A stretch of DNA of 64,000 bases from Micrococcales bacterium (GCA_016703125.1 JADJCR010000003.1:129267-193266); one strand, 5' to 3'; counted from the stretch's first letter, positions 54 through 44,722 are shown. A program made the numbers and translations. Notes: generated by a model from the sequence alone, not told the origin.

Positions 54-1757
54 CTAGCCACCAACCACGCAGCGCTGCGGCAGCTCGAACCACCGCAAGT
101 GTTCGAACTCCGGTGACATCTGTGCAGAGGGGCTCACGTCCGGGTCCGGCCGGGCGGCCAGCACATCCACCGCCTCCTGCAGGTACCCCGCGAGGGCGGA
201 CTCCTCGGCGGTGTCCTGGTGGTGGGGGTAGGCGAGACGGCCCTGCTCGTAGCGCAGTTGGTCCAGCCGCAGCGGTGGTTCCACCGGGCCGTTGCGGTGG
301 CGCCACAAACCGGAGGCCGCATCGAACGTGTAGTCCTCGATGAGCCGGTAGCCCAGGTCGGCGATGAGTTCCACGGCTGCCACCACGTAGGCGAACACGG
401 TCTCCGAGACGAAGTAGTTGAAGTTCACCCGGACCCACCCGGGCTTGATCCCCTCACACCCCCGGGAGATCTCAGTGCGCAACTCCTCGGAGCGATCGAG
501 GTCGATGCCCAGGAGTCGGTGGCCGTATGGCCCGGCGCACGAACAACCACCGCGGGCCTGGATCCCGAAGAGGTCGTTGAGGATCGCCACCACCAGGTTG
601 TGGTGCAGATACATGCCGCCCGGCCGGCGGATCACGAAACTCACGATCGACAACCGTTCCGCCTGCGGGTTGCCGAGTACCTCGATGTCCGGATGCCTTC
701 GCCACGCGGTGATGGCTCGGCGCAGGAAGTCCTCCTCGTGGGCCCGGATGACGTCGGCACCCACGGCCTGTTTGAGTTGGAAGACGAGGCCCGCACGGAT
801 CGATTCCACGATCGCGGGCGTGCCGGCTTCCTCCCGGTGCTCGATGTCGGCGATGTAGAAGTGGTTCTCCGGGTTGACGTACTCCACGGTGCCGCCGCCC
901 ACAGCCTCGGGCACGCTGTTGTGCACCACGTCGCGACGCACGATCAGCAGTCCGGGGGTGCCGGGCCCCCCGATGAACTTGTGCGGCGAGAGGAACACCG
1001 CATCTGCGTAGGCTCCCGGCTCGGGCGGGTTCATGTCGATGTCGACGTAGGGACCCGCCGCCGCATAGTCCCAGAAGGCCAGGGCCCCATGCTCGTGCAG
1101 CAATGAGGAGATGGTCCTGGTGTCTGTCACGATGCCGGTGACGTTCGACGCGGCGCTGAACGAGCCGATCTTCAACGGCCGCTCGGCGTAGTCGACGAGC
1201 GCGGCACGCAGGCCCTGCACGTCCACGTGGCCGTCGATGTCCTCGGGAATGGTCACCACGGTCGCGATCGACTCCCGCCAGGGCAACTCGTTGCTGTGAT
1301 GCTCGTACGGACCCACGAAGACGACCGGCCGCTGCTCCGGTGGGATGTGGGCGAGCAGCCCGTACTGACGGTCGAGGTCCGCCGGGATCCGCAGATTGAG
1401 CATCCCCACGAGTTTGTTGATCGCCCCGGTGGTTCCGGACCCGCAGAAGATGACGGCCGCGTCGCGGGCGTTGACGGCCTCCCCGATGATCCGCCGGGCA
1501 TCCTCGCGAAGCCGGGTGGTCTGCAGGCCGGTGCCCGAGGACTCGGTGTGGGTATTGGCGTAGCGGGGCAGCACCTCGTCGCAGATGAAGTCCTCGATGA
1601 ACCCCAGCGCCCGGCCGCTGGCCGTGTAGTCGGCGTATGTCACGCGACGCGGACCGTACGGCCCCGGCATCACCTGGTCGTCGCCGATGACTGCGGCCCG
1701 GATCGTCTCGAGGATCGCCGGCTGGGGCAGATCCGGGTCGGCTGGCGGCAGGTCCAT
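54..1757 (-). CDS. class V aminotransferase-fold PLP-dependent enzyme (cysteine desulfurase-like), ~567 aa
   Basis: Track ORF 54..1925 trimmed to ATG 1757 (MDLPPADPD...). Motifs YADYTASGR, GSGTTGAINK and the PLP-lysine context FLSPHKFIGGPG fit the class V fold. The first 56 codons of the track ORF are not protein-like. Confidence 0.75.
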   Translation of the reverse strand: MDLPPADPDLPQPAILETIRAAVIGDDQVMPGPYGPRRVTYADYTASGRALGFIEDFICDEVLPRYANTHTESSGTGLQTTRLREDARRIIGEAVNARDAAVIFCGSGTTGAINKLVGMLNLRIPADLDRQYGLLAHIPPEQRPVVFVGPYEHHSNELPWRESIATVVTIPEDIDGHVDVQGLRAALVDYAERPLKIGSFSAASNVTGIVTDTRTISSLLHEHGALAFWDYAAAGPYVDIDMNPPEPGAYADAVFLSPHKFIGGPGTPGLLIVRRDVVHNSVPEAVGGGTVEYVNPENHFYIADIEHREEAGTPAIVESIRAGLVFQLKQAVGADVIRAHEEDFLRRAITAWRRHPDIEVLGNPQAERLSIVSFVIRRPGGMYLHHNLVVAILNDLFGIQARGGCSCAGPYGHRLLGIDLDRSEELRTEISRGCEGIKPGWVRVNFNYFVSETVFAYVVAAVELIADLGYRLIEDYTFDAASGLWRHRNGPVEPPLRLDQLRYEQGRLAYPHHQDTAEESALAGYLQEAVDVLAARPDPDVSPSAQMSPEFEHLRWFELPQRCVVGG

Positions 1758-1809
1758 GGCCGTACCGTAACTCCCAGCCCACACACAATCGCGCCCGTCG
1801 CGGGCACAA

Positions 1810-2112
1810 GTGGAACAATCGACCGTGATGAACGTCGCACCCGCCGAGTTGGAGTCCCCGGACACCGAGGTCGCCGCGGAACCTCCGTGGATCTGTCTGG
1901 TGTGGAACGACCCCATCAACCTCATGAGTTATGTGACGTATGTGTTCATGCAGTACTTCGGGTACGGCCGCGAGAAGGCCGAGTCCCTGATGTGGGACGT
2001 GCACACGAAGGGACGGGCAGTGGTCAACTCGGGCACCAGGGAACAGATGGAGCGCGACGCGACCGCGATGCACGAGTACGGGTTGTGGTCCACCGTGCAG
2101 AAGGACGACTGA
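1810..2112 (+). CDS. clpS: ATP-dependent Clp protease adaptor ClpS
   Basis: 100-aa ORF. The core WICLVWNDPINLMSYVTYVFMQYFGY...AESLMWDVHTKGRAVV is the ClpS signature. GTG start at 1810; an alternative in-frame ATG lies at 1828. Confidence 0.9.
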   Translation: MEQSTVMNVAPAELESPDTEVAAEPPWICLVWNDPINLMSYVTYVFMQYFGYGREKAESLMWDVHTKGRAVVNSGTREQMERDATAMHEYGLWSTVQKDD

Positions 2113-2639
2113 TGGGCCGCCGACGGCCGTTCTCGGTGAAGAAGGGGGAACTCGTCGCCCGCCTCAACGATCAGGAGCGCCGCGTGCTGGAGTTCGTCTG
2201 CGACGAGCTCACCTTGGTGCTCGCCGATCCCATGCCGGAGCCCGACGTCCCGGAATGGGCCCGCGAACTCGGGCTGTCCGGCGTCGGGGATGCCCGGCAG
2301 GCCCCGCGGGACCCGGTGGTGGCCCGGCTGCTGCCCGACGCCTACGACGATCCGAAAGAGGCCTCCGAGTTCCGCGGCCTGACCGAGGCGGGACTGCGCG
2401 CGACCAAGCTGGCGCACGTCTCGGTGGTGCGCGAGCAACTGCATCATGAGCCCACCGTCATCACCGACGACGTGAAGGCGTGGCTGGCCTTCTTGGCCGA
2501 CGCGCGACTGATGCTGGGCACGCGACTGGACGTCACGGAGGACGACGACCTCGTGCCCAGCGACGACCCCGAGTTCAACCTGTACCTCTACCTCGGCTAC
2601 CTGCAGCAGTCCCTGGTGGAGGAGTTGATGGGGCGCTGA
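2112..2639 (+). CDS. DUF2017-family protein (conserved ClpS partner, Rv1332-like)
   Basis: ATG 2112 overlaps the clpS stop (ATGA). This is the tail of track ORF 1227..2639 (MGRRRPFSVKKGELVARL...LYLYLGYLQQSLVEELMGR). Position next to clpS is conserved in actinobacteria as I recall. Confidence 0.7.
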   Translation: MGRRRPFSVKKGELVARLNDQERRVLEFVCDELTLVLADPMPEPDVPEWARELGLSGVGDARQAPRDPVVARLLPDAYDDPKEASEFRGLTEAGLRATKLAHVSVVREQLHHEPTVITDDVKAWLAFLADARLMLGTRLDVTEDDDLVPSDDPEFNLYLYLGYLQQSLVEELMGR

Positions 2640-2705
2640 GGGGCTGGCGCTGCCCTGTCAGGTCCGGTCGCAGTACCTGCGCCGGGGCCCCGGCACAATG
2701 GTCGG

Positions 2706-3122
2706 GTGCTGAAGATCCGCCGTGCACTCGTCGACGCGATGATCGCCCATGCCCGTAGCGACCACCCGGACGAGGCCTGCGGGGTGATCGCCGGTCCGGG
2801 GGGCAGCGACACCCCGACCCGCTTCATCCCCATGGCCAACGCAGCGCGCTCGACCACGTTCTACGAGTTCGAGTCCGGTGACCTGTTGCGCTTGTACCGG
2901 GAGATGGACGCCAACGACGAGGAGCCGGTGGTGATCTACCACTCCCACACCGCGACCGAGGCCTACCCTTCGCGCACCGACGTCAGCTACGCCTCCGAGC
3001 CGAACGCCCATTACGTGCTCGTTTCCACTCGATTGCCCGACACCGCAGAGGTGCGCAGCTACCGGATCGTGGATGCAGAGGTGACCGAGGAGGAAGTCCA
3101 GATCGTCGACTCCGTACCCTAG
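2706..3122 (+). CDS. mec: JAMM/MPN+ metalloprotease Mec (CysO-cysteine peptidase)
   Basis: EACG and HSHTATEAYPSRTD (HxH...S..D JAMM motif). It lies directly upstream of cysO-cysM, as Rv1334 does. Confidence 0.85.
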   Translation: MLKIRRALVDAMIAHARSDHPDEACGVIAGPGGSDTPTRFIPMANAARSTTFYEFESGDLLRLYREMDANDEEPVVIYHSHTATEAYPSRTDVSYASEPNAHYVLVSTRLPDTAEVRSYRIVDAEVTEEEVQIVDSVP

Positions 3123-3127
3123 TGTTC

Positions 3128-5148
<2,021 letters not shown>

Positions 5149-5152
<4 letters not shown>

Positions 5153-5895
5153 AGCTGACCGTGGTGGGGTGCACCGGCTCGTTCCCGGGGCCTGACAGCC
5201 CGGCGTCCTGCTACCTGCTCGAGCACGAGGACGCGCGTATCCTGCTGGATCTCGGCAACGGGTCGCTGGGACAGTTGCAGCGGTACGCCGACATCTACGA
5301 CATCGACGCGGTGTTCCTCTCGCACCTGCACGTGGACCACTGCATCGACCTCTGTTCCTATTACGTCGCGCGCAAGTACCACCCCGATGGGGCGGCTGCG
5401 CGCATCCCGGTCTTCGGCCCGAAAGGCACTGCCGACCGCATGGCCGCGGCGTACGGGCTGCCGCTGACTCCCGGCATGCACGACGAGTTCAACTTCGTAC
5501 GCCACGCACCAGACCCGACAGTGGTGGGGCCGTTCACGATCGAGACGGCGCGGGTCGCACACCCGGTGGAGGCCTACGCCATCAAGGTCACGGCCGGCGG
5601 GCGCTCGCTCGTCTACTCCGGGGACACCGGCCCCACCGATGCGCTGGTCGAGTTGGCCCGGGGGGCGGATCTGGCGCTGTTCGAGGCGTCCTTCGTGGAC
5701 TGCCCCGGAAACCCCGTGAACCTGCACATGACCGGCGGTCAGGCAGCCGATGCGGCGCGGCGGGCCGGCGTGGGTCGCCTGCTCCTGACGCACCTGGTTC
5801 CGTGGAACGACGCTGCCGTGGTGCGGGCGGAGGCGGCGGCGGGGTTCGACGGTGACTTGCAGCTGGCCAGCAGCGGCCTCCGGGTGGAGGTTTAG
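5149..5895 (+). CDS. MBL-fold metallo-hydrolase (Rv1339-like; that family was reported as an atypical cAMP phosphodiesterase)
   Basis: HLHVDHCID (HxHxDH) motif. GTG 5149 overlaps the murI stop. Same position as Rv1339 between murI and rph. Confidence 0.75.
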
Positions 5896-8457: not shown

Positions 8458-8466
8458 GGTGGCTGC

Positions 8467-10404
8467 ATGACACTCAACCTGCAATGGCAGGACCACGGCG
8501 TGCGGCCGCAGGACGACTTCTACCGGCACTGGCTGGGTCGGTGGCTCGACACCTTCGAGATCCCCGCGGACAAGGCGGAGTTCGCCTCGTTCACGGATCT
8601 GCATGACACCGCCCAGGAGCAACTCAAGGCCATCATCGAGGACCTGTCTGCGCAGCAACCCGACCCGGGCACCAACGCCGGCCGGATCGCGCTGCTGTTC
8701 AACGCCTTCATGGACACCGACGAGATCGACCGAGTGGGACTGGATGCGATCGCGGACCTGTTCGCGCAGGTCGACGCCCTGGTCTCCACCGCCGAGTTGC
8801 CTGCCCTGTTCGGCCGGCTGGAACGGCTGGGGGTCGGCTCGCCGCTGGGCGGTGCGGTGCACCAGGACAACCGGGACTCCAGCCGCTACGTCCTGGACAT
8901 GTGGCAGAGCGGGCTGGGCATGCCGGACCGCGACTACTACCTGGAGGAGACCTTCACGTCGCAGCGGGAGGCCTACCGCGAGCACGTGGCGGCCATGCTG
9001 CAGCGCTGCGGTCTGGGTGGTGGCGAGGATGCAGACCGCATCGTGACGCTGGAGACCAGGCTGGCGCAGGGCCATTGGACCCAGGTCGCCAACCGCGATC
9101 CGGTGCGGACCTACAACCAGTACCGGCTCGGGGAGTTGAGCGACCTGACGCCGGGCTACGACTGGGGTGCCTACCTCGACGCCATCGGCGTGACGGGTCG
9201 CATCGAGACCCTGAACATCGCACAGCCCGACTACGCCCAGGCCTGTGCGCGCTTGCTCGATGAGGTCGACCTGGCCGATTGGCGGCCCTACCTGCGCTGG
9301 CGGATCCTGAACTCGTTCACCGGGCTGCTGTCCGAGGAAACGGTCCAGGCCTCGTTCGAGTTCTACGGCAAGGTCCTGCGGGGGGTTCCGCAGATGCGGC
9401 CCCGCTGGAAGCGCGGAGTGGACCTGGTGGAAGGCATGGTCGGCGAGGCGCTCGGCCAGGAGTACGTGGGCCGCCACTTCCCGCCGGAGAACAAGGCCCG
9501 CATGGTCGAACTGGTGGACAACCTGCTGGCGGCGTTCGAGGTGTCCATCGATGGCCTGGCCTGGATGACGGAGCAGACGAAGCAGGAGGCCCACGCCAAA
9601 CTCAAGCGCTTCACGGCCAAGATCGGCTACCCGGAGGTCTGGAAGGACTACTCCGACATGGACTTGGTGCCCGGGCAGTTGATTGCGTCGGTACGGGCGG
9701 CCCGGGAGTGGCACCACGACTACGAGGTGAACAAGCTCGGCGGCCCGGTCGACCGCCACGAGTGGCACATGAACCCGCAGACGGTCAACGCCTACTACAA
9801 CCCCGAGATGAACGAGATCGTCTTCCCGGCAGCGATACTGCAGCCGCCGTTCTTCACCATGGCCGCCGACGACGCCGTCAACTACGGCGCCATCGGGGCG
9901 GTCATCGGCCACGAGATCTCGCACGGCTTTGACGACCAGGGCTCGCAGTTCGACGGGGACGGCAACCTGCGCAACTGGTGGACCGACGCCGACGACGAGG
10001 CGTTCTCCGACCGCACCCGGGCGCTCATCGACCAGTACGCAGCGTACGAACCGGTCGATGGTCACACACTCAACGGTGAGTTGACGCTGGGGGAGAACAT
10101 CGCCGACGTGTCGGGGCTTGCCGTTGCGTACCGGGCCTACCAACTCTCGCTGGGTGGGCGACCCGCGCCGGTCGTTGACGGGCTGACGGGGCAGCAGCGG
10201 TTCTTCGTCGGCTTCACCCACGTATGGCGGGCCAAGACCCGTCCGGAGGAGACTGTCCGCCGGATCACGATCGACCCGCATTCCCCGCCCGAGTACCGGG
10301 TGTTCGGGACGCTGGTCAACACCGACGCCTTCTTCGACGCCTTCGATGTCAAACTCGGCGACGGCATGTGGCGCGAACCCTCCGACCGTGTGCGGATCTG
10401 GTGA
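8467..10404 (+). CDS. M13-family zinc metallopeptidase (PepO/neprilysin-like)
   Basis: 645 aa. HEISHGFDD (HExxH) and GENIADVSGL motifs. C-terminal ...REPSDRVRIW is typical of M13. Confidence 0.85.
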   Translation: MTLNLQWQDHGVRPQDDFYRHWLGRWLDTFEIPADKAEFASFTDLHDTAQEQLKAIIEDLSAQQPDPGTNAGRIALLFNAFMDTDEIDRVGLDAIADLFAQVDALVSTAELPALFGRLERLGVGSPLGGAVHQDNRDSSRYVLDMWQSGLGMPDRDYYLEETFTSQREAYREHVAAMLQRCGLGGGEDADRIVTLETRLAQGHWTQVANRDPVRTYNQYRLGELSDLTPGYDWGAYLDAIGVTGRIETLNIAQPDYAQACARLLDEVDLADWRPYLRWRILNSFTGLLSEETVQASFEFYGKVLRGVPQMRPRWKRGVDLVEGMVGEALGQEYVGRHFPPENKARMVELVDNLLAAFEVSIDGLAWMTEQTKQEAHAKLKRFTAKIGYPEVWKDYSDMDLVPGQLIASVRAAREWHHDYEVNKLGGPVDRHEWHMNPQTVNAYYNPEMNEIVFPAAILQPPFFTMAADDAVNYGAIGAVIGHEISHGFDDQGSQFDGDGNLRNWWTDADDEAFSDRTRALIDQYAAYEPVDGHTLNGELTLGENIADVSGLAVAYRAYQLSLGGRPAPVVDGLTGQQRFFVGFTHVWRAKTRPEETVRRITIDPHSPPEYRVFGTLVNTDAFFDAFDVKLGDGMWREPSDRVRIW

Positions 10405-11594: not shown

Positions 11595-12437
11595 TCACCC
11601 GAACTCCGAGACCGCCAGGCGTTCACAGGGCGACCAGTCCTGGTCGGGGTTGGTGTCCTCCAGGCGCAGCAAGGCGCCGTAGATGTCGTCGGGCTTGACC
11701 GAAACGCCCAGGTGCGTGAATGGCGTGGCGAACATGCTCAGGGCCCCGACCACGCCCATCGTGAAGACCAGGCATGAGCCGATGAGGACGATGGCCAGGC
11801 GGGGACGGTCCGGCAGGCTGACCATCATCAGCGTCGCGAAGACGAGCACTCCGAGATCGATGACGAGCCACACGATCAGGGGTAGTTGGAAGGCCGAACT
11901 GAGGATACGTTTCTGGCGGGCGTTCTGCGCGTCCTGGAAGGCCGACATCGTCTGGGCCTGGGCCTCCTGCTGCGTGCTGGTGCGTACGGGGAGGTCCCCG
12001 ATGCTGGCGCGCGTCCGCGCGGCCCAGGCAGCGGTGTTCTCGTCGCCGGTGAGGTCACCGTTTTCCGCGGAGGTCCAGGAATCTGTGGCCACAGACCGCA
12101 TGAGGCAGACGGTGTCACGGCGGACCTGATCGGCCGGTGATGAGGGGAAGTAGTCGGCGTTCTCGAACACGTCGGCGAGGGCGACGGCCTCCTCGCGCGC
12201 GCTCTGCCGTACCTCCTCGTAGACCTGCACGGAGAAGAAGAGCATCAGGCCAAGCATGATCCCGAGCACGCCGCTGACGTAGGCGAGCGCGTCGGTAAGC
12301 ACCCCGCCAGCGGCGTGTTCGGAATCGTCCTCACGACTGGCGACGTAGCGACGCAGGAGGATGCCCGTGCCGATGCCCAGTGCGGTGCCGAGCAGCAGTC
12401 CGAGCCAATTGAGCGCAACCAGCGTCACGCCGGACAT
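11595..12437 (-). CDS. membrane protein of unknown function (DUF4239-like by recollection)
   Basis: 280-aa ORF. It has an N-terminal TM (LVALNWLGLLLGTALGIGTGILL), two further hydrophobic segments and a soluble middle region. Same strand as, and downstream of, the giant surface-protein gene. Confidence 0.5.
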   Translation of the reverse strand: MSGVTLVALNWLGLLLGTALGIGTGILLRRYVASREDDSEHAAGGVLTDALAYVSGVLGIMLGLMLFFSVQVYEEVRQSAREEAVALADVFENADYFPSSPADQVRRDTVCLMRSVATDSWTSAENGDLTGDENTAAWAARTRASIGDLPVRTSTQQEAQAQTMSAFQDAQNARQKRILSSAFQLPLIVWLVIDLGVLVFATLMMVSLPDRPRLAIVLIGSCLVFTMGVVGALSMFATPFTHLGVSVKPDDIYGALLRLEDTNPDQDWSPCERLAVSEFG

Positions 12438-12545: not shown

Positions 12546-15500
12546 TCACCTCCGGCGCTGGATCGTCACGCCATCGATGATTACCGGTCCTCCGCCCAGC
12601 GACACGAGCCGCAGGTAGCCACGTGCCGAGGCGGGCCAATCCACGGAGAACTCCTTGGCATGCCTGCCAGCGGCCGTGCCCTGTCGGTCGGCGCCGGCCT
12701 GCGAGAGGTCGATGACCTTGAGCAGTTGACCCCTGTGCCGGACTTCCAGTCGTCCGCAGTCGCTGCACGCCACCGCGGTCACGGACACGGCTTCCGTGCG
12801 CCCGATCCGGATCGACAACGCAGAACGGTAGTCCACGGCCCTGAGTGCCTTCTTCTCGGAGAAGAACCGGCCCTTGAGCGGGGCCCACCTCCCCGACGCC
12901 TTCAGGGGAGGCCTGATCGAGCGGGCGGCTCACGCAACTCCAATCAGACCACCCGGACCAGTGGCCGACCCCGTCGACGGCGCGAACGCTGGCACAGACG
13001 GTCTTGCCCCGCCCGATCGTGAGCCGACGTACGCGCTCCGGGGACGAGTCGGCGTCATTGACGATTACTGGTTCTTCGAAGTTCCCCAGGACCCCGCTCT
13101 GGCGTGTACGGATCTGGTAGGAAGCGAGGCCGGAACCGCCGCGGTCGGCACCTGAGTACCGAAGCCTCGGGATCCCCTTCCTGGCAATTGCCGGCAGGTC
13201 GTCGATGGCGACCTTCGGATCCTGGCTGTCGACCATCCACGAAAGCAGTGGCGTCTGCGCCGCACCCCCCGGGCCTTCCGCCTTTGCGCGGAAGGTGTGC
13301 TTCCCGTCGGCGAGTCCGGTCAGCCGCAGCGGCGATGCGCACGGCTGTCCGACACCGTCGATGAAGCAGGTGACGGCAGCGCCATCGATGGACGTGGCGA
13401 ACTCGATCGTGGCGTCCGGCGTGGTGAACGACCCCTCCGCAGGCCCGCGAACGATGGCGATGTCGGGAGCTGCCGCCAGCGAGACCTCGGGAGTCGTGGC
13501 AGGCGGCGACTCGAGGCCGGCCTCGTTGCGTCCGGTCACGGTGAAGATCAGCGGTGTCTCCGCGGTCAGACCGGTGAACGTGGACTGCTGGCTCGACCCC
13601 GCCTCGTCCTGGCATGTCCCACCCAGCAGGCAGACCCGGTAACTGTCCATAGGCACGCCGCCGTTGCTGGCCGGCGGGATCCAGGAGACGACCGCCGAAC
13701 CCGGCGCCGACCCTGCCGCCGCACGCACGTTGCGAGGGGCGCTCGGCGCGTCAGGCAGGGTCAAGGGGTTGCTCTGGTCCGACTCCGGACCCCGACCCGT
13801 GGCACTGATCGGCGTCACGGTGAACGTGTAGGTCACGCCTGTCTGCAGCCCCGGAACCGTGGCCGTGACCGCATCGCCGGGGAACTGGAAGAGGGTTCCA
13901 CCCGGCGACACCGCGATCTCATAGGAAGTGACGCCCGCCCGGGCCGATGACGGCGTCGGCGGCTTCCAGGTGATCTCCGCCTCTCCAGGGCCACCGCGCT
14001 TGGCCTTCACGTCGGTCACCTTCTCAGGCACGCCCAGCGGAGTGACCGGTGCACTTGGGGAGGACTGGTCACCAGGCGCCGCACCGTTGATCGCTTGCAC
14101 GGTGAACCGGTACGGGCGTCCGTTGGTCAGGCCGGACAGCGTCATCGCCGTGGTGGTTCCGGTCACCGTGGTGTCGATCGGAGTCTCCGGGAAGGTTTCG
14201 CCCGGCTGCCGGAACTCGCGGATCCGGTAACTGTCGATCGGCGCCCCACCGGTGGCGGAGGGCGGATCCCACTGCAGACCGATCGACTGGTCTCCGGCGT
14301 ACCCGTGACGTTGGACGGCGCGCTGGGAGCCTCCGTGACCACGTCGATGGGTTCGGACGGGTGAGATGCCGGTGACTCGGTTCCTCCCGAGATCGAGAAC
14401 ACGGCGACTCGGTAGCGGCCCGGCGCGACGTCGGGGAACGACGTTGCGGTCTGACCACCGGGAACCAGCTTCTCGAGAGGGCTGGACCCGTCCTCCGGAT
14501 AGGCCACGACGCGCCAGTCGTGTCCGGTCGGCTGAACCGGCCCGAGCGGATCGGACCACTGGATGTCCAGGGTCCGGCCGGGGCTGAGGTCGACCTCGAC
14601 GTCCTCCGGTGCTCGAGGCGCAACGGACGTAACGGCCACGATGCGGTGCGAGCGGTAGCCCTTGTTGTTGTCCTCGTGGACCTCGTCGGCCACCCCGTCG
14701 GAGTCCACCTTCGCGAAGAAGCGCGGAGCGCCGCCCGCGTACCTCGCGTCGGGCGTCCAGTCCAGGTAGGCGAATTGCGACCCGCGCGCCGGGATGGCGC
14801 CGAGGTTCGAGATCTTGCCGATCGACACGCCACCTACGTCGGGATCGGCGTCGAAGAACTCGACGGCGACACCCGCGGGCTGGTCCTTCAGGCTGTAGTT
14901 CTCGACCTGTGCGCGCAGGCACAAGGGCACTCCGGGCGCTGCGTACTCGGTGGTGGGCACCCGTGGGTCGTTCGGGGCGCACGGCCCACGGAACACCTGG
15001 ACGCCCGGTGAGATGAAGCGTGCGGAATCCGACGAGATACCGGCTTGCTTCTCGTAGTCCAGCAGCCGCGGCAGTTTCAAGGTGACGTCCGGCTTCTTGC
15101 CGTACATCTGCTGCCACCATGTCCTCGGAGAGCCCGGTGGCGCGATGCCCGGACTGACCGCGTAGTCGAGGACCAGCGCCGCACTCTCGTTCCAGTACGC
15201 GAACGGCTTCACCGTGTACGCGGTCTCCCCGAAGCTCTCATCGATGCCGCCGAGGATCGCGGCCAGCTTCGTCGTGTCGCCGACGGACGTCTTGGTGTTG
15301 GTCAGGCTGGAGTTCTTGTAGTCGCCGGAGACCTCGACGCTGACCTTGACCAGGCCGGCGACGTTCCCGCCACCCTTCAAGGTGCCACCGACGTTCCAGT
15401 CCTTCTCGGTGGACGCCTCCTCGGCGGTCACCTTCTCCTTCGTCAACGTATAGGTGAAGTCGCTGAAGTCGGACAGTTCGAACTCCTGCTGTGCGAAGGG

Positions 15501-17473
15501 CCCCACGGGCGGACTCTGGGCGTCCTTGGCAGTGGGCGAGATGAAGGGGTTCTCCTGCTCAGTGAGGTCTTCGGGGTAACTGAGGATGTTCCCCGGCTGG
15601 TGGTTCACGTTGAGATCCACCGCGTCCGGCGAGTTGATGTCGATCCACCGCTTGGTGATGGTGTGCGGGTCGTGGTGAGTACGTACGCCGAAGGCTGCGT
15701 GCCACCCGGCTGGTAGATCGGGTACTCGAGGGTGTCATAGGCCCGCCGGATCGCGTAGATCTTGTCGGTGTTGCGCGCCTTGACGTTGACCTCAATGGTG
15801 TCCTTCGTCGTAGTGGCATCGACGTTCTTGAACTTCTCGCCGTAGCCGCCGCGGATCTCCGCCTCGACGTCGACGACGTCGAACAGCGAGAACTCGGCGC
15901 TGGCCTTGGCGCTGACCGCCCAGTCCTCGGTTGACTCGCTTGTCACCTCGGTGGTCGCCTCGGTCTTCTTCTCGTACTCCGAGGTGAAGAAGCAGACCGG
16001 TGGCACCAGATATTGATTGCCGGCGTAGCAGAAGTTCGGGTCGTACATGCGGCCGTCGAGGACGTCGAAATGGGTAGGCGGAGCGTTGAGGATCACCGAC
16101 GGCTCGAGTGTCGTGTACCGGCCCGGGACCGGGTCCCCGAGTTCAGCCCGGCCGTCGAGGGCCATGGAGGCGAGCTCCGGGGTGTCAGGAGCGCCACAGT
16201 CCGAAATGAACTGTGGGCTGCCGAAGGTCATCTTCCCTTGGCTGTTCAGACTCGCGAAGTTGAAGAAGGCCCGTTCTCCGGAGGAACAGCCCGAGTCCGT
16301 CCTGGCCGCCACAGCGATCTGTGGGAACGCCCGCACAGACGCCTGTCCCGGCACGGGCGCGACCACCTGTTCATTGGTGGGACGGGTGTCCAGAACCGTC
16401 ATCTCGGCGAAGGGGATTGTGAACTGCGAGTCCAAGGTTCTGAACACATTCTCGTAGGTGCCGACATCAACGACATCGATGAAACCGTTGGGCTGGTTCA
16501 AGATGCCCCACTCGGGCATGGACACCAACTCATCGACACCGTCACCGGTCAGGTCGCCGACCGATTCGATCTGCGAGTGGAAGTTGCGCCACTGGCCAGT
16601 GTCCAGCACCGCGCCGTCCATCGTTCCCATCAACTTCTCTTTGAGCGTGAACGAGGCGCCTGACGGTACCAACTCCGTCAGCCTGCCGTTCCCCTGGATC
16701 CCGGAGCCGACGAACAGCCGGGGCTTCTCCGGCCCGTTGCCGCTGGTGTCGCGGACAACCGCAGCCCCCGGACCAGCCTGCTCGTCACCGCTGCCCGGCA
16801 ATCCTGACAACGAAGGAGTGATCGTCTGGGGCGGTACTGCTTCCTGCAGATCGCCCTGGCCATCGACCTTGAGCAATGCAGCCCTGTAATGCCGGTCCGC
16901 CGCGGTGCTGCTCTGGGGTGCCCACAGGACCGCGACCTGATCGGAGCCGGCCCCGGTGAAGTCCGCCACCGCCAACGACGGACTAGTGGCGACACCCCCG
17001 TTGTTGGAGTACACGGGGCCATAACTCAGAACGGGCCCTGCAACCGACAGTCCCGTCACTCGGCCATTCGCATCACGCTGCACCCCGATGCGTGCGACCC
17101 TCAGTTCGTTCGTGCCCGCCTGCACGTAGGACACGACCAGAGACCGGGCGGCATCAGTGCCGAATCTGCCAGGAACGAGCGCCACCTCTGTGAGATCGCT
17201 CGGTTGACCCCCCGGCAGCGCGACGTGGAATGTCTGGGCGAAGCCGTTGAGTTGGTGGTTCGCGTCATAGGCCGGCCGTGACCAGGTCACGCAGATGGCG
17301 GACTGCCCGCTGCATCCGATGCCGGTTCCTGCATGCGCCAGGCCCGGTTCCAGCGAGGGCCGCCACACGTCATCGGGGTACTTGATGAGATCGAGGTCGG
17401 CTTCCACAGCCCTCGATCGGTACTGCGACGTTGAGGACTTGGACAGGCTGGCCGCCACGCTGGTCCCGTTCAC
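12546..17473 (-). pseudogene. giant secreted multidomain surface protein read in four successive frames
   Basis: Track ORFs 15605..17473, 14163..15620, 12331..15120 (middle part only) and 12546..12836 join into one protein. Domains in order: FG-GAP/VCBS-like region, beta-rich module, CARDB-like domain, four FN3 repeats, an Ig-like domain, an FN3-like domain and a C-terminal module. The joins are ...YVLTTT|HTITKRWIDINSPDAVDLNVNHQ..., ...APSAPSNVT|GYAGDQSIGLQWDPP... and ...CVSRPLD|..LKASGRWAPLKGRFFSEKKALRAVDYRS... Frame changes lie at about 15667-15669, 14302-14304 and 12890-12925. FG-GAP-like motifs are ADFTGAGSDQVAVLW and VGDLTGDGVDELV. The CARDB-like stretch is VENYSLKD...ADEVHEDNNKG. FN3 signatures include LQWDPP...YRFTVQAIN. 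Confidence 0.75.
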
Positions 17474-17826
17474 GACCGGGGGTTGATGACCTTGAGCTCG
17501 CCGTCGATCTGCAGACTGGCCCGGCGCACGTCGATCTTGGGGATCCGTCCCAGTTGTTGATCCAGTTGCCCCCTGCTTTCGACGAGGACCAACCCTTCTC
17601 GCCCGATGGACCGACGGTTCTCGAAGCGGTCGACGGGGCCCGGGGTCTGGACTGCCGCCGGAACAGCCTGGGCGACGCCCGGAGCCGCCGCGACTGCGGC
17701 CGTGGGAGTTGCGGCGAGGGCCGGGCCAGCCGCGCTCATGGGGAGCGCGATGACGCCGGCCACACCGAAACTCAGGACCGTTCTGGCCGTGACAACAGAG
17801 GTGCGTTTCGCGATCCCACTGACCAT
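17470..17826 (-). CDS. 118-aa ORF with a Sec signal peptide; probably the true N-terminus of the giant protein
   Basis: MVSGIAKRTSVVTARTVLSFGVAGVIALPMSAAGPALA|ATP. GGGAGG lies 6 nt upstream of the ATG. The stop overlaps the GTG of the giant ORF, immediately after a G5 run (17478-17482, plus strand). Adding one base there would read ...KVINPPVVNGTSVAAS... as a single protein. Confidence 0.6.
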   Translation of the reverse strand: MVSGIAKRTSVVTARTVLSFGVAGVIALPMSAAGPALAATPTAAVAAAPGVAQAVPAAVQTPGPVDRFENRRSIGREGLVLVESRGQLDQQLGRIPKIDVRRASLQIDGELKVINPRS

Positions 17827-17922
17827 TGCGGACCTCCCAGGGTCAAGAGCCCCGAAACTACGGGACGTCGACAGGGAGGTTCAACTCGAGCGGTGGAACG
17901 GTAGGGGGCGTCTGCACTTCGG

Positions 17923-18004
17923 TGCGGGTGGGGAGACTTGAACTCCCACGTCCTAGGACACAGGAACCTAAATCCTGCGCGTCTGCCAGTTCCGCCACAC
18001 CCGC
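17923..18004 (-). tRNA. tRNA-Leu (anticodon TAG)
   Basis: 82-nt reverse complement GCGGGTGTGGCGGAACTGGCAGACGCGCAGGATTTAGGTTCCTGTGTCCTAGGACGTGGGAGTTCAAGTCTCCCCACCCGCA. Acceptor GCGGGTG/CACCCGC, anticodon loop TTTAGGT, long variable arm, GTTCAAGTC T-loop. CCA is not encoded. Confidence 0.9.
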
Positions 18005-21085: not shown

Positions 21086-21424
21086 ATGTCTGATGCGTCC
21101 GATGCTGTGGTGCCCGTTGCGCCCACCGGAGTCGAGAAGAAGCCGTCGCCGGAGGTCGTGAAGGGGCAGCCGCAGCCGGTTCAGCGCTCGATCGCGGAGA
21201 TCGAGTCGGACATGGAGGCCACCCGCGCCCGGCTCGCAGCCACGCTGGGCGAGTTGAAGGTGGCCGCGCAACCCAAGACGATCCTCAACCGCCAGGCCGA
21301 GAAGGTGAAGGGCTTCTACGTCGATGAGTACGGTGCCGTGCGCATCGACCACGTCGCCATCACCGTCGGCGTGGTCGTCGGCGTCATCGTCCTGCGACGC
21401 ACGTGGAGGCGGGTCACCAGCTGA
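21086..21424 (+). CDS. DUF3618-like protein with a C-terminal membrane anchor
   Basis: 112 aa. SIAEIESDMEATRARLAATLGELK coiled segment and a hydrophobic tail ITVGVVVGVIVL. Family name is from recollection. Confidence 0.55.
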   Translation: MSDASDAVVPVAPTGVEKKPSPEVVKGQPQPVQRSIAEIESDMEATRARLAATLGELKVAAQPKTILNRQAEKVKGFYVDEYGAVRIDHVAITVGVVVGVIVLRRTWRRVTS

Positions 21425-21730
21425 TGGTCCCGATCAAGCTCCTGCACGATCGGGTGCTGGTGTCCGAAGAGGCCGAGGGGGAGCGGCAGTCCAGCGGTGG
21501 CATCCTGATCCCCGCCACCGCGTCGGTGGGCAAGCGGCTCTACTGGGCGAAGGTGGTCGCGACCGGTCCGAACGTCCGGCACATGACCCCGGTGACCGGG
21601 TCCTCTTCGAGCCGGAGGACCGCGCGGTGGTCGGTTGCAGGGCAGCAGTTACGTGATGCTGCGCGAACGCGACGTGCATGCGGTAGCAGCGGAGCACGTC
21701 GATGTCGAGGAGACCGGGCTCTATCTGTAG
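21424..21730 (+). pseudogene. GroES-family co-chaperonin paralogue, interrupted by two single-base frame shifts
   Basis: ATG 21424 overlaps the upstream stop. Frame 1 reads MVPIKLLHDRVLVSEEAEGERQSSGGILIPATASVGKRLYWAKVVATGPNVRHM. Next frame reads PGDRVLFEPEDRAVV. Third frame reads QGSSYVMLRERDVHAVAAEHVDVEETGLYL*. Shifts lie at C4 run 21587-21590 and GG 21633-21634. The restored length of ~102 aa fits GroES. Confidence 0.7.
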
Positions 21731-21861: not shown

Positions 21862-21934
21862 GCGCCGCTAGCTCAATTGGCAGAGCAGCTGGCTCTTAAC
21901 CAGCGGGTTCGGGGTTCGAGTCCCTGGCGGCGCA
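21862..21934 (+). tRNA. tRNA-Lys (anticodon CTT)
   Basis: 73 nt GCGCCGCTAGCTCAATTGGCAGAGCAGCTGGCTCTTAACCAGCGGGTTCGGGGTTCGAGTCCCTGGCGGCGCA. Acceptor GCGCCGC/GCGGCGC, anticodon loop CTCTTAA, GGTTCGAGTCC T-arm. CCA is not encoded. Confidence 0.92.
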
Positions 21935-22000
21935 CTTCTCGTGTTGGGCCCGACTCCGGGTCCTGAGGAAGGTGGCCTACGGCCCCTCCTGGTGCCTGAT

Positions 22001-23596: not shown

Positions 23597-23761
23597 ACCC
23601 TTCCCTGCGACGCCTTGCGGGTCGATCCGCGGCCCGCAGCGGTTCGAGTGCCGACCCTCTCGCGAAGTTCAGTACTCCACCATTCTGACGCAGCAGGCGA
23701 GCGATGGTGTGGGGAACGGCTTATCAAGCCACGGTCCGGAAGGTGCGCCCGTCCATCCTGT

Positions 23762-24706: not shown

Positions 24707-25437
24707 TGGAGCAGGTCGCGCAATCCTTCGCGCACACATACGCATCGCTGCTGGCCTGGGCGCTGACGTGGTGGGCGGACGGTGGGGGGTGGGGACTTCC
24801 CGAGGTCAGGGCGCAGGTAGGGGACCTGCGCCCCGTGACGCGGTGGGCGACGGCCGCCCTCCTGGCACTCGGGCTGGTGGCCGTCGGCTTGGTGATGGTC
24901 GTGCGCCGGCGAGGTGAGGACGTCGCGGCCGCGGTCGTCGGCGCGGGAAGGGCGCTGTTGGCTGTGTCTGCCGGGTGGCTGATCCTGGCCAGCGGCTGGT
25001 CGCTCGGCAACCACGTGGCCAGCTGGATCCTGGGGCGGTCCACAGGTGTCGGCGAATACCGCCGCGAGGTCGAGGAGGCGGTCTCCGCGGCCGACCCGGT
25101 GGTCGCGCTGACCCTGTCGATCGTGGGGATCGCCTGCTGCCTCGGCTTCATCAGCGCGGTTCTGGTGCGCTTGGTGGTGGCTGTCCTGATCGTCGTCGGC
25201 ATGCCGGTGATCGCTGCCGGTTCGCTGTTCGGCGCACGGGCGCTGCGGACCGTGGCTGCCTGGGGGGTGGCGGTCATCGCGTTCGAACCCCTCAGTGCTG
25301 TGGTGTACCGGGTGGGTCATGCGCTCGCGCTCAACGCCCGGGAACCGGTACTCGTGTTGCTGGTGGCAGCGGTGACCTCGTTCCTGGCCGCGAGCATGCT
25401 GCCGCTGACCGCGCGCCTCGTGGGACCTGGGCCATGA
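24706..25437 (+). CDS. polytopic membrane protein, VirB6/TrbL-like position
   Basis: ATG 24706 overlaps the upstream stop (ATGA). 243 aa with at least 5 hydrophobic segments. The assignment rests on position and topology only. Confidence 0.5.
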   Translation: MEQVAQSFAHTYASLLAWALTWWADGGGWGLPEVRAQVGDLRPVTRWATAALLALGLVAVGLVMVVRRRGEDVAAAVVGAGRALLAVSAGWLILASGWSLGNHVASWILGRSTGVGEYRREVEEAVSAADPVVALTLSIVGIACCLGFISAVLVRLVVAVLIVVGMPVIAAGSLFGARALRTVAAWGVAVIAFEPLSAVVYRVGHALALNAREPVLVLLVAAVTSFLAASMLPLTARLVGPGP

Positions 25438-26721
25438 ACGCCGACGTACGCACGTACGGCGGGTGGCGGGAACGGCGCGGCTTCGGGGTGGCGGGGCTGT
25501 CGGGCACGCAGACGGGCTTGGCGCTCGCCGGGGTCGTGGTGTGCCTGGCGACGGCACTTGTGCGCCCGCAGGGCGTTGATGGTGATGGCAGTCCCGTTGT
25601 TGGCGCTGGTGGCGTTGGTGGCCATGCGCGTCCGTGGTGAGCCCGTGGCGGCCGTGCTTGGGCGGCACGGCCGCTTCCAGTGGGTCCGGCGACGAGGTGG
25701 ACTGTCCTTCCGGGGCTCCGAGTCGGGTCGGCTGCCGGGAGTCCTGGCCGACGCCCACGTCATCGACGCCACCGACGGTGCGGGTCGCGGGGTGGGTATG
25801 TTCTGGTCGCCGGGCCGCAGGACCCTGACCGCGCTGGTGCCGCTTGAGCCGTGGTGGCCGGACCTCGTCGACACCGATGACATCGCGGGCTGGGTGTCCG
25901 GCTGGTCCGACTGGCTGGCGCACCTCGGCTACGCCCCACTGCTCGAGCACGTGGCAGTGACCATTCGCACCGCGCCGACCGGACAACCCGCTCGCACAGT
26001 GATGGGCATCACCGTCGGTCAAGCGGCCCGCTCCGCGCTGGATCAGGCCACGGCCGCGCTCTTCGACGCCCTGAGCGGTGCCCGTGGTCTCGGTGCCTGT
26101 GGCATGTCCGTGCTCGAGCCCTTGAACCCGGAGGAGATCATGACCTGGGTGCGCCAGGGCTACGACCAGGCCGCGGCGGGTGCCGCCGCAGTGGCCGCGG
26201 ACATGCGCCCGACCGCGGTGGATGAGGGATGGGAGACCTACCGCCACGACGGCTGGCTCTCTGCGGCCTACGCGTGGCACGAGCCACCGGGCGGGGCCAT
26301 CACCCCGGCCGGCCTGGCTCGGTTCCTGGGACCGGCGGAGTACCACAAGTCGGTCACCATGGTCTTCACGCCCGTGCCTGCGCACGAGGCAGCGCGGGAG
26401 GTGGATGGGCAGGCCCAGGCGGCGCTGTTCAGGCGCGAGTACCGCCGGCGGCTCGGCCGCGATGAGACGGCCCGGGATGCCGTCGACCTCCGGCGGGCGC
26501 GCCGCACTGCGGAGGAACAGGCGGCGGGTGCGGGCATCGTGGACGTGGGACTGTTCGCCGTGGCCACTACCCGGGATCCGGTGTCGCTCGCGTCGGCCGC
26601 GGCCGATCTCGAGAACCGTGCGGGAGAGGCCCGGCTGCGGCTGCGCCGCTGCTACGGCGAACAGGAACGGGCTTTCGCGTGCGCGCTCGGGGTCGGGTTC
26701 GTCCCGGGCAGGTGGTGGTGA
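25434..26721 (+). pseudogene. SCO6880-family protein of actinobacterial T4SS-type conjugation modules, with one frame shift near the N-terminus
   Basis: ATG 25434 (MNADVRTYGGWRERRGFGVAGLSGTQTGLALAGVVVCLATAL, tail of track ORF 24975..25640) continues in track ORF 25558..26721 (...LMVMAVPLLALVALVAMRVRGEPVAAVLGRHGRFQW...). The frame change lies at about 25545-25580. Family name is recalled from NCBI annotations. Confidence 0.6.
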
Positions 26722-36586: not shown

Positions 36587-39210
36587 GTGCGTCTGCCACG
36601 CTTGCGTGTTGTGGACGATGTGGGGCAACGCCTGGCGGCCGCCCGGCTACCTGCCCTACGGGCGCATCAGGCCGCCTGCCTCGCGGCCTTCGACGCGGAC
36701 CCTGGTTCCGGCAGGTACCACTTCGTGCTGCCACCGGGGGCGGGCAAGACGGTGCTGGGCGCGGCAGTGGCGCAGCGGGCCGGTCGCAGGACGCTGGTGC
36801 TGGTGCCGAACACCGCGATCCAGGAGCAGTGGCTGCGCTTGTGGACCGGCGCCGGCGCGGTCACCGTCGGCGACGACCGGTCCCTGGCCAGCGATGTCAC
36901 GGTGCTGACCTACCAAGCACTGGCCACCTTCGACGACGACGCGGATCCGACGGACGAGTCGATGGTGGCGCGGTTGCACCCGAACGCGCTCGAGATCATC
37001 GACGCGCTGCACGACGGTGAGCCGTTCACGGTGGTGCTGGACGAGGCGCACCATCTGGCGCAGACCTGGGGCCGGTTGCTGGCCGAGGTGCTGCAGCAGG
37101 CGCACGCCGGGCAGCAGGAGGGCCCGGTTGTGGTGGCCCTCACCGCGACCCCGCGAGAGTCGTTGTCGCCGGCCGAGGCTGAGCTCGTGGAGACGCTGTT
37201 CGGTCCCGTGCGCTATGCGGTGAGCACCCCGGCCCTGGTGCGTGACGGGGTGCTCGCCCCGTACCGGGAACTCGCGTGGTTCGTGACCCCCACCGACGCC
37301 GAACGCGATTACCTGGCCCGGTCCGCGCAGCACTGGCAGCAACTCATCGTGGGGGTGATGGAACCCGAGTTCGCCCAGCCGGGCCTGCTGGCCTACCTCG
37401 ACCCCGCATGGGTGGCACATGAGGGCGTCTCCTGGGCGCATATCGAACGCACTCGACCGGAGTTGGCGCGGGCGCTGCTGCGAGCCTCCCACCAGGGTCT
37501 GTTGGCCCTGCCCGAAGGCGCGCGCCTGCGTGACGAGCACCGGCAGCCCGTGCAGGTCGACGACTGGGTGGAGATCCTTTCGGACTACGCGCGCACGGCC
37601 CTGGCCGGCTCGGACGCACCTGGGTCGGCCTGGCAGCAGTTGCGTGCCGCGATGTCGTCAGTCGGCTGGACCCTGACCCGCAAGGGGGCCCGGCGCGGGC
37701 AGTCTCCGGTCGACCGGGTGCTCGCCCGCAGTGCGGCCAAGGCCACGGCGGCGGGTTACCTCGTGCAGCAGGAGTACCTGGTGCGCGGTGACGACTTGCG
37801 GGCCATCGTGCTGACCGATTACGAGAACGTGGGCGCCACGGCACCGGTCGACCTGCAGCAGATCCTCACCCGGCATGCCGGGAGCGCATGGGAGGCCCTC
37901 CGGCAGGTGCAGGCATCCAACCCAGCGTTGCGCTGCGTGCTGATGACGGGGACATCTGTCGGGGGCGACCCGGACGTACTGGCCGGACTGCTGCCCCAGG
38001 GACTGACGGCGGTACCCCGCGATGACGGACTGAGCAGGGTGGAGGGCGGGTGGACGCCACGGGCGTGGGTGGCTCACCTGACGGCAGCCTTTCAAGCGGG
38101 CGAGATCGACGTGCTCGTCGGGACCCGTGGCATGTGGGGGAAGGCTGGGACGCGCCGGCCGCCAACGTCGTGGTGGACCTCACGGCCGCCACGACTGCCA
38201 CAGCGGTCGTGCAGATCCGCGGGCGGGCCATCCGCCGCGACCCGGTCCGCGCGGACAAACTCGCACACGTGTGGTCAGTGGCGGCGGTGGACGACGGGCA
38301 CCCCCGCGGGGACCTGGACTACAGGCGCCTGGTCGCCAAGCATCGCGGCTACCTGGCCCCGGATGCCCAGGGCCGGATCGTCGCCGGGGTCGCGCACCTG
38401 GATGCCCGCTGCACGCCGTTCGCCGCTCCGCCGCCGGATCAGCGCGCGGGCATCAACGCCGACGCGCTCGAGGCCGCCGGGCGCATCGCACAGTCCCGCG
38501 AGGCGTGGGCCATCGGCACGCCCTACCGGGATGTCACGGAGATCGTGGTGCGGGTGCGTGCTGCGCGCCCTGAGGCTTTGGGAGTGCCCGAGCCGTCGGT
38601 GCGCACAGGCCCGGCGTGGCCGGTTGTGGGGGTCCTCGGCGGTGGGGTCGTGGCCGCAGCGGCAGCGGTCGTGGCGCAGGCCCCGACACTGCTGACCGGC
38701 GTGGCCGCGGCTGCCGGCGCCGGTGCGGGCTGGGTCGCGCAGACAGCGGCCCGGGCCGTGCGGACCCGCCGCGTCGCCGCGGCCCTCGGTGCTGATGGCA
38801 TGCTCCTGGCCTTCGGGCGGGCGGTCGCCGGTGCCATGCAGGCGCCGGGGCAGGTACAGGTCGAACCGGATGCCTCGGGCACGTGGATGGTGCGGCTGGC
38901 GCAGGCGGCCGCAGCGGATTCCCGACGGTTCGCCACCGCGATCGAGCAGCTTCTGCAGCCGGTGGACTTCCCGCGGTACGTCGTGTCGCGGCGCCTGCCC
39001 GGCCATCGGACCGTGATGTGGCACGCGGTGCCCGACGAGTTCGGGGTCAACAAGCAGGCCGCCTCGGCCTTCTTGGTCCACTGGCAGCGGCACGTCTCGC
39101 GGGGCTCGGTGCTCTACACAGGTTCGCCCGAAGGGGCAGGGGTCGCGCAGGCCGTGCGTGGTGAGGATCCCATGGACCTGTCCACCGGGATGTATGCCGA
39201 ATGGGCCTAG
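36587..39210 (+). pseudogene. SF2 DEAH-box helicase-family protein with a large C-terminal extension, one frame shift
   Basis: Track ORF 36587..38695 (motif I PPGAGKTVLG, motif II VLDEAHHL, LTATP) continues in ORF 38050..39210 at ...VLVGTRGM|.GEGWDAPAANVVVDLTAATTATAVVQIRGRAIR (motifs V/VI). One base is missing next to 38134. Confidence 0.7.
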
Positions 39211-43505: not shown

Positions 43506-43756
43506 GGATTCGACGGTAGTCGCTGCGAGCGACGGATGGCGCGGCGCGTCCGTCCGGGGAGGCGGCGCCTGGCCCCGGTTGCGATCAGAAGATGGCGCGG
43601 GGTCGAATCCGTCCGATGTCGCGTTCTTGCGGTCTCAGCGCGGCAAAGCCGGCACACGATCAGCCCCACGCGGGTGACAGCTTCGTGACGGCTTTCAGTC
43701 GTGGCTGCTGACTGCTTCAGGTGTAGTATCGGCCGAACCGGTGCGAGGAGTGGGCC

Positions 43757-44719
43757 ATGACAGCTAGAGCAACGATCGTCATTGCGACCGCGGCGGCCCT
43801 CACTTCGGCTCCGGTGGTGCTGGGGGCGCCTGCTCAGGCGGCGGAGGGCCGTCCGGCGACAGTCCAGGCCAAGAATGATCTGGCCCCGCTGCTCAAGACC
43901 AGGCAGTTGATCGCGGGGGACACCTGGCGCCAGACCGTGCGGGTCAAGGGCTACCGACAGATCAAGCTTCAGGTCAGGTCCGGCGGTGGGCCGTTCCGGA
44001 CCGTCAAGTCCTACAAGGTGCCGAAGAACGGGAAGGTCAAGTTGTCCCGCACCTTCGCGACCCCCGGGCAGTACTCCTTGCGCAGCATCGCGGTACCCGA
44101 CGGTGCGGGGCGCGATGTGAAGTCGCGGCCGGTCATCATCACGGTGTTCGCGAGGCAGTACCAAGGGAGTTTCGGCGGGGAACAGAACTCCGGCACGTCG
44201 TGGAACGGATCCATCACGTACCAGTACCAGGAGCGCGACCCCATCATCAACACCCGGTGGAACGACGGCGCGATCCACTACACAGGCATCGCGGGCTCGG
44301 TGACGTGGAACTACGACGCCTCCGTGCTCAACGGCGGGATCCGGCGCAACTGTTCAACGGCGCAGAGCAGCGGACAGTTGGACGTCAGCACCTTGGATGC
44401 GACGATGACCGTCGACCAGAAGACGGATGATACGTACAAGGGCCGCAGGTACGACCTGAACGTGTCCGTGTCCCCGACGCCGCGGATCTCCTACACCTGC
44501 GAGTACTTCGATGGTGAGTTCTGGGTGGCCGAGACGCGCGAAGCGGGCCTGACGTTCGGGCCGAACCTGGGGGATCTGTTGACGAACGGCCTCAGCGTCG
44601 ATGCGACCGGAGTCGCTGGCCGTTACACCAAGAGTCTGGCCGCGCCCCTGGTCGGCGACATCAACCGCCCGCCGGAGGCCGTGACGAACCGGTGGTACTG
44701 GAACCTCACGGCCGGCTGA
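43757..44719 (+). CDS. secreted protein of unknown function
   Basis: 320 aa. Signal peptide MTARATIVIATAAALTSAPVVLGAPAQA|AEG. GAGGAG lies upstream. An Ig-like first half (KLQVRSGGGPFRTVKSYKVPKNGKVKL...YSLRSIAV) is followed by a Ser/Thr/Asn/Tyr/Trp-rich second half. I recognise no family. Confidence 0.6.
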   Translation: MTARATIVIATAAALTSAPVVLGAPAQAAEGRPATVQAKNDLAPLLKTRQLIAGDTWRQTVRVKGYRQIKLQVRSGGGPFRTVKSYKVPKNGKVKLSRTFATPGQYSLRSIAVPDGAGRDVKSRPVIITVFARQYQGSFGGEQNSGTSWNGSITYQYQERDPIINTRWNDGAIHYTGIAGSVTWNYDASVLNGGIRRNCSTAQSSGQLDVSTLDATMTVDQKTDDTYKGRRYDLNVSVSPTPRISYTCEYFDGEFWVAETREAGLTFGPNLGDLLTNGLSVDATGVAGRYTKSLAAPLVGDINRPPEAVTNRWYWNLTAG

Positions 44720-44722
44720 GGT

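Follow-up and report, generated by a model that had tools for sequence, protein, structure and literature searches.

One secreted-protein gene, most likely intact, underlies five open reading frames in a Micrococcales metagenome-assembled genome

Positions 12546-17826 of a 64,000-nt stretch of DNA from a Micrococcales bacterium metagenome-assembled genome (MAG; GCA_016703125.1, JADJCR010000003.1:129267-193266; hereafter, the window) carry five minus-strand open reading frames (ORFs) whose ends overlap or abut. A previous interpretation made from the sequence alone (the sequence-only reading) joined these ORFs into one large secreted protein and left open whether the single-base insertions and deletions (indels) that separate them are real. 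Our comparison with related genomes points to assembly errors and indicates that the region very probably holds one intact gene for a secreted protein, which appears as five ORFs through four single-base errors in run length. The frameshifts are most likely residual single-base consensus errors of a long-read metagenome assembly and the split of the gene an artefact, because the indels are private to the window assembly, errors are also present in other genes and in intergenic DNA, and the ratio of non-synonymous to synonymous substitution rates (dN/dS) of the gene is low.

Comparison of the three minus-strand frames showed that protein-like reading changes frame at four points (junctions J1-J4; Table 1), each inside a short G/C run in DNA with a GC content of approximately 62-71%. 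Four corrections (three bases added and one removed) result in a gene of 5,283 nt (1,760 codons) in which the terminal stop is the only one. Its product aligns end to end with intact orthologues, which bears out the proposal that the five ORFs belong to a single gene. When the repaired product was used in a protein search, ten full-length relatives of 1,688-1,812 aa were recovered, and alignment showed it to be collinear with nine of these at 50-84% identity, with all four junctions in conserved alignment columns (NPPVV, TTTPHT, GTPGD, and LDQASLKASGRW). In the orthologues, the N-terminal 118 residues with their signal peptide belong to the same polypeptide. No orthologue has the 118-aa ORF as a separate gene, and residues 10-38 hold the only strongly hydrophobic 19-residue stretch in the 1,760-aa protein. 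These observations agree with the view of the sequence-only reading that the 118-aa ORF is the N-terminus and carries the export signal.

Intact and near-identical copies of the gene are already public. A cluster at a threshold of at least 90% identity holds two intact same-species proteins of 1,763 aa (P0042 and, from JGI, P0040), the first of which is 98.2% identical to the repaired product over its full length. The proteins P0046 and P0041 align without gaps at 99.2% identity (residues 1-1120 and 578-1760, respectively) and jointly span all four junctions, and an Actinomycetota MAG (L008) encodes an intact ORF of 1,759 codons. P0042 is encoded on ENA ERZ25039527 contig_17089 (locus L007) and resembles the repaired gene in its domain order and in its neighbors, which are Bcp and tRNA-Leu upstream and a Bestrophin-like gene downstream. 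It differs from the window gene in being free of frameshifts, in a 3-aa insertion (DWV) near residue 108, and in scattered substitutions.

The same-species comparators for the four junctions comprised a 3.45-Mb contig (L001), GCA_963853255.1 (L006), an 815-kb contig (L007), and two short-read Logan contigs (L004 and L005). An exact look-up of the neighboring Bcp protein returned no further assemblies beyond two known contigs. All four junctions are intact in L001, L006, and L007, and in the two short-read contigs the intact base is present at the three junctions that they cover (J2-J4). At J1, where one extra G had been proposed to restore the frame, L006 has exactly a run of six on the same surrounding allele. 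The four junction indels are private to the window assembly, in that every comparator covering a site is intact there, and none was shared across independent assemblies, the sharing by which a pseudogene would be recognized.

Across approximately 25 kb of comparable sequence, the window carries ten private 1-bp indels, eight of which are deletions. Four fall in this gene, two in a GroES-like gene that is intact (102 aa) in L001, L006, and L007, one in a gene for a 428-aa protein that is intact in L006 and L007, and three within 105 bp of intergenic DNA. As this gene accounts for 5.3 of the 25.3 kb, its share of four out of ten indels does not amount to an enrichment (Poisson P about 0.16). One of the intergenic indels (GACCC-GCA) shares its 9-mer context with J2. 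Of the three GACCCCGCA sites that the shared region holds, two are collapsed in the window, and three further copies elsewhere in the window are intact, which is suggestive only of an error specific to this k-mer.

The rest of the window was subjected to Viterbi frame labelling with a trained codon-usage model. This recovered J2, J3, and J4 together with the known extra sites and flagged two more same-strand frame switches that are distant from any stop codon, both of which were confirmed by Pfam. In the glycogen phosphorylase gene, positions 2-153 of the Pfam Phosphorylase family match in one frame and positions 153-712 in the next, such that the family is split exactly at 153; this is probably another single-base consensus error. 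In a gene for an SF2 helicase-like protein, the ResIII/DEAD region with GAGKT and DEAH motifs lies in one frame and the end of Helicase_C (GEGWD...QIRGRAIR) in the next, with a possible second frame switch near 36668.

Each of the other long-read-style assemblies of the species has private frameshifts at different places: two in this gene in L006 (at the equivalents of 14468 and 13471), one in this gene (12856) and two in an M13 peptidase gene in L001, and frameshifts in nearly every gene in L014. The two short-read contigs have none. The window and L001 copies of the gene differ by 83 synonymous and 36 non-synonymous changes, and the resulting dN/dS is 0.145 rather than a value nearing 1 as under relaxed selection. 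The substitution pattern of the gene is one of purifying selection.

Several points weigh against consensus error as the cause of the split. Four of approximately ten coding frameshifts fall in a single gene that makes up 8% of the window, which is approximately five-fold more than an even spread would give (Poisson P about 0.01). This share may be a product of poor polishing in a strain-variable gene or, less likely, of real recent loss; clusters of single-nucleotide polymorphisms (SNPs) lie in the gene at 13000-14000 and 17000-17500. The dN/dS of the gene is slightly above that of neighboring genes (about 0.1) and is compatible with very recent inactivation. Error and real mutation were weighed only indirectly, by comparing assemblies. 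The window presumably derives from a Danish activated-sludge MAG set, to which we take the IPG68-style locus tags to belong. That set is reported to combine Nanopore reads, CANU assembly, polishing with Racon and Medaka, and one Illumina-based round of Racon (PMC8012365).

Some of these points are shared by the alternative that survives best, namely that the gene is a genuine, recently inactivated pseudogene in which successive slippage in short G/C runs added further frameshifts after the first. This would account for a frameshift rate some five times that of coding sequence across the window and for the slightly higher dN/dS than in the neighbors, and the frameshifts at other positions of the same gene in L001 and L006 could mean repeated loss. 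We nevertheless consider it improbable. The same assembly is frameshifted in the glycogen phosphorylase, helicase, GroES-like, and one other gene and carries private intergenic indels, and every other assembly that covers a junction site is intact there (both short-read contigs for J2-J4, and the two 1,763-aa same-species proteins for all four). Furthermore, a gene with four neutral indels would normally have gathered neutral substitutions in the tens, but its excess of non-synonymous changes is small.

Phase variation or programmed ribosomal frameshifting at the G/C runs is far less probable still and was rejected. All four junctions do lie within homopolymer runs, but these are only 2-6 bases long, which is well under typical contingency tracts, their lengths are identical across four other assemblies, and four separate sites would need to be corrected simultaneously. 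The shifts also go both ways (three -1 and one +1), and neither a slippery heptamer nor a stimulatory structure was found at the junctions. That the five ORFs are separate genes, with the 118-aa ORF as an independent small secreted protein, has virtually no probability: the 622-aa piece was annotated by gene callers as a protein in its own right, with which it agrees letter for letter (MBK6762666.1, 'MAG: hypothetical protein IPG68_05020 [Micrococcales bacterium]', encoded on a contig of 478,687 bp), but no orthologue is split, all ten full-length relatives fuse the pieces, the junctions lie inside conserved domains, and the 622-aa ORF has no export signal of its own and ends in approximately 27 residues (RTPSPSGGSTSTRRTRWIST and the preceding out-of-frame stretch) that are not conserved.

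Residual consensus error, the favored explanation, has consequences for the use of this MAG. One long gene has become five 'hypothetical proteins', the same has happened to at least four further genes within these 64 kb, and counts of pseudogenes or calls of small secreted ORFs based on this genome would be wrong.

Table 1. Positions of the gene, its ORFs, junctions, and domains, and of other features in the window. Run lengths at the junctions are those of G runs on the plus strand; aa, residues of the repaired protein.
Feature	Position	Strand	Remarks
Whole gene, corrected	12546..17826	-	1,760-aa multidomain protein; stop codon 12546-12548
ORF 1	17826-17470	-	118 aa
ORF 2	17473-15605	-	622 aa
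ORF 3	15620-14163	-	485 aa
ORF 4	within 15120-12331	-	only the middle part is genuine coding sequence
ORF 5	12836-12546	-	
J1	17478-17482	-	G5, should be G6; L006 has G6 with identical flanks
J2	15664-15666	-	G3, should be G4; G4 in all four comparator assemblies
J3	14294-14295	-	GG, should be GGG; GGG in comparator assemblies
J4	12902-12905	-	G4, one base extra; G3 in comparator assemblies
Sec-type signal peptide (predicted)	17713..17826	-	aa 1-38; read by eye, conserved in orthologues
FG-GAP-type beta-propeller	16181..17428	-	approximately aa 134-549; AlphaFold2 and Foldseek
Conserved core	14949..16165	-	approximately 400 aa, aa 555-960; most conserved part of the protein
Amphipathic beta-hairpin 1	15764..15973	-	aa 619-688; core-model strands 76-109 and 113-145
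Amphipathic beta-hairpin 2	15240..15446	-	aa 795-863; core-model strands 252-284 and 288-320
CARDB domain	14625..14927	-	aa 968-1068; Pfam in orthologues and structure
Four FN3 domains	13480..14615	-	aa 1072-1450; first weak, fourth also matches Ig_RIMBP2
Ig-like (aa 1452-1536) and FN3/Ig-like (aa 1537-1635) domains	12925..13476	-	weak Pfam matches only
C-terminal module	12549..12924	-	125 aa, aa 1636-1760
tRNA-Leu(TAG)	17921-18004	-	95 bp upstream of the gene, same strand
Bestrophin-like membrane-protein gene	11595-12437	-	downstream of the gene; PF14023, E 1e-19
GroES/Cpn10-like gene	21421-21730	+	two private 1-bp deletions, at 21586 (G5 to G4) and 21633
Intergenic indels	23618-23723		three private 1-bp indels within 105 bp, upstream of an MFS transporter gene
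428-aa gene	25433-26721	+	private extra C at 25571; first ~46 codons out of frame
SF2 helicase-like gene	36602-39207	+	frame switch near 38143
Glycogen phosphorylase gene	59342-61848	+	frame switch near 60150-60160

The domain architecture of the repaired protein was evaluated with Pfam, AlphaFold2, and Foldseek. When the five raw fragments were searched, Pfam returned FN3 and Ig-type matches only, with no FG-GAP and no CARDB. Sec export is predicted from N-terminal features read by eye, which comprise three basic residues (K7, R8, and R15), a hydrophobic segment spanning residues 16-35, and the sequence A36-L37-A38 followed by A39. The region after the signal peptide contains motifs that resemble calcium-binding loops (ADFTGAGSDQ and GDLTGDGVDE) and was modelled in an intact orthologue of 83% identity (P0002) as an all-beta propeller of approximately 26 strands, with predicted local distance difference test (pLDDT) values of 70-94. 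The 14 best Foldseek matches of this region are integrin alpha subunits (E 3e-6 to 4e-4). The Pfam FG-GAP families (PF01839 and PF13517) had no match on the window sequence and a weak one in one of ten orthologues (E 0.0034), and matched distant homologues strongly (e.g., P0067, E 2e-19). The FG-GAP region named in the sequence-only reading is thus upheld by predicted structure and distant homologues but not by Pfam on the window sequence itself.

The CARDB-like domain and the FN3 repeats were also correctly recognized from the sequence. Pfam CARDB (PF07705) was detected in seven of ten orthologues (best E 7e-8), with no match at E <= 0.01 in the window sequence, and the corresponding fold in the model of P0002 (pLDDT about 90-96) aligns with PDB 3idu at a template modelling (TM) score of 0.79, a root-mean-square deviation (rmsd) of 2.9 A, and a Foldseek probability of 1.0. 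The FN3 family (PF00041) matched the repaired protein with an E-value of 3e-42 and 143 bits against a gathering cut-off of 25; three stretches of the match are strong and a fourth is weak. When the PDB was searched with a sequence profile of the full alignment, the only matches were to FN3 proteins (FN3 arrays of titin and of receptors). The Ig-like and FN3/Ig-like pair that follows is conserved across the family, with matches to Ig_Rha78A_N (E 8e-4 to 3e-3) and, in the homologue P0054, to Big_13 (E 4e-4).

The C-terminal module has an invariant Cys-x-x-Cys pair and ends in GGGxVxIDGV; it matched no known family and no PDB entry at better than E 0.5. A protein search with the module recovered six short fragments only and also missed known full-length members, and its result is weak either way. 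Among the sequences compared, the module is present only in proteins that also carry the N-terminal unit, and the suggestion that it ends other large actinobacterial FN3 proteins was not supported, as it was found in this one family only. The designation 'surface protein' also found no support, as a wall-anchor scan detected no LPXTG-like motif past residue 343 and no C-terminal hydrophobic segment or membrane helix.

The conserved core between propeller and CARDB matched no Pfam or NCBIfam family. With an alignment of 10 sequences, AlphaFold2 gave a model of the propeller and left the core at pLDDT values below 40; with 79 sequences, the core was modelled at a pLDDT of 76 and a predicted TM-score (pTM) of 0.74. 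The model is dominated by two very long beta-hairpins of approximately 33 residues per strand, and in 27 homologues alternate faces of the hairpin strands differ by approximately 2 Kyte-Doolittle units with a period of 2. A Foldseek search against viral structures was uninformative.

We propose that the protein, following Sec export, would act extracellularly in binding or adhesion. The propeller and core would form the working head and the CARDB-FN3-Ig array a spacer, and the C-terminal module with its Cys pair may keep the protein attached to the cell envelope or to a substrate. Predicted structure and domain types make an exported binding or adhesive protein of this design somewhat more probable than other roles. 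This proposal is open to the objection that it was built from domain types and predicted structure and that its head includes a core without a characterized homologue. An assembly of the two hairpins of the core into an oligomeric beta-barrel, as in pore-forming proteins, is a tentative possibility suggested by the model, and the tips of both hairpins have pLDDT values below 50. With low probability, the approximately 400-aa core, which is shared with about 1,260 clusters of secreted proteins, may be an undescribed domain family whose hairpins form such a barrel; it would then constitute a new class of pore-forming or membrane-inserting module on a propeller head. The His, Asp, and Glu residues conserved in such motifs as LNAPPxHFD and NHEVGN are also compatible with an enzymatic role.

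The sequence-only reading had described the gene as flanked by tRNA-Leu, which is accurate for the upstream side and not for the other, and as followed by a membrane-protein gene, which is present on the same strand and matches PF14023 but is not a conserved partner. A conserved operon with this Bestrophin-like gene was considered and rejected, since the neighbor is absent from six more distant loci; it is adjacent within the species only, and gene neighbors in general are not conserved beyond the species.

Comparison of the same-species assemblies also revealed differences among strains. An in-frame 9-bp difference at 17499-17502 (three residues, DWV) separates an allele shared by the window and L006 from one shared by L001 and L007. 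Together with the SNP-dense patches, this suggests that co-occurring strains differ by allelic or recombination patches. The window (8458-10401) and L006 have an intact M13 peptidase gene, and in L001 (16282-19375) and L007 (17434-19372) this gene is interrupted by an extra base at a shared position (9252); in L001, a second extra base (window equivalent ~10142) fuses it to a BrkB gene. These extra bases look like errors or shared variants in L001 and L007. At positions 105-5886, L001 also has an island of approximately 5.8 kb (phage integrase, HTH_17, DUF3854, and small ORFs) that is inserted next to tRNA-Lys and accompanied by a repeated tRNA end; the island is absent from the window (tRNA-Lys at 21862-21935), L006, and L007. 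Around the far end of the window, a cluster for glycogen/maltose metabolism at 39307-47134 and 52270-54423 comprises genes for a GlgE-like maltosyltransferase, a GlgX-like debranching enzyme, and a GH57-like protein, together with glgP; the first three appear intact as long ORFs.

The N-terminal unit belongs to a much wider family. An exhaustive profile search with this unit identified 1,263 representative clusters at E <= 1e-3, of which 300 reached E <= 1e-30. Most proteins that combine propeller, core, and CARDB are approximately 1,060 aa long. All eight of the relatives of this length that were scanned carry a type IX secretion system (T9SS) sorting domain, and in seven of the eight this domain comes after FG-GAP, core, and CARDB, in that order. 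Two related hits, from a Rhodothermales MAG and an unclassified bacterium MAG, are named 'T9SS type A sorting domain-containing protein' in their source. All occurrences identified of the long form with FN3 domains are in MAGs of uncultured Actinomycetota and Solirubrobacterales from sludge and soil. A literature search for proteins with FG-GAP, CARDB, and T9SS domains returned nothing relevant. Collectively, these observations describe a large, unnamed, and uncharacterized family composed largely of domains familiar from secreted proteins. Its conserved core is a reasonable target for structural or biochemical study, and no unusual mechanism is indicated by the present data.

Among characterized systems, the secretins InvG and GspD of type II/III secretion resemble the core locally over the long hairpins (Foldseek E 6e-7), and both have two long hairpins per subunit. 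They differ in overall fold (TM 0.10-0.13, rmsd >20 A), and no secretin family of Pfam matched this protein. Membership of the core in a secretin or beta-barrel pore family found no support in Pfam, NCBIfam, or a global fold match, and the resemblance is a lead rather than a family assignment. To our knowledge, Micrococcales have no outer membrane in which a secretin could sit. The FG-GAP propeller of integrin alpha (PDB 7nxd_A and 3fcs) is the top structural match of the propeller (E 3e-6, probability at least 0.99), and motifs resembling calcium loops (GDxxGDGxDE) are present here. It differs in having 8-10% sequence identity, and the TM score is low as the query also included the poorly modelled core. 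The CARDB domain is close in fold to that of Pyrococcus PF1109 (PDB 3idu), with a sequence in the window that falls under the reporting threshold of Pfam.

A further likeness is to the T9SS-type proteins of approximately 1,060 aa (e.g., P0067, P0160, and P0189), which are composed of FG-GAP, core, CARDB, and Por_Secre_tail. These have the propeller-core-CARDB unit in common with the protein described here, at 27-37% identity over approximately 500 aa, and share with it the motifs LNAPPxHFD, YGExF, WEYPVY, NHEVGNILSY, TPYAYW, and LPWRxDPEKG. They differ in that a type IX sorting domain follows CARDB in place of the FN3/Ig array and the C-terminal module, and they presumably use a different export route.

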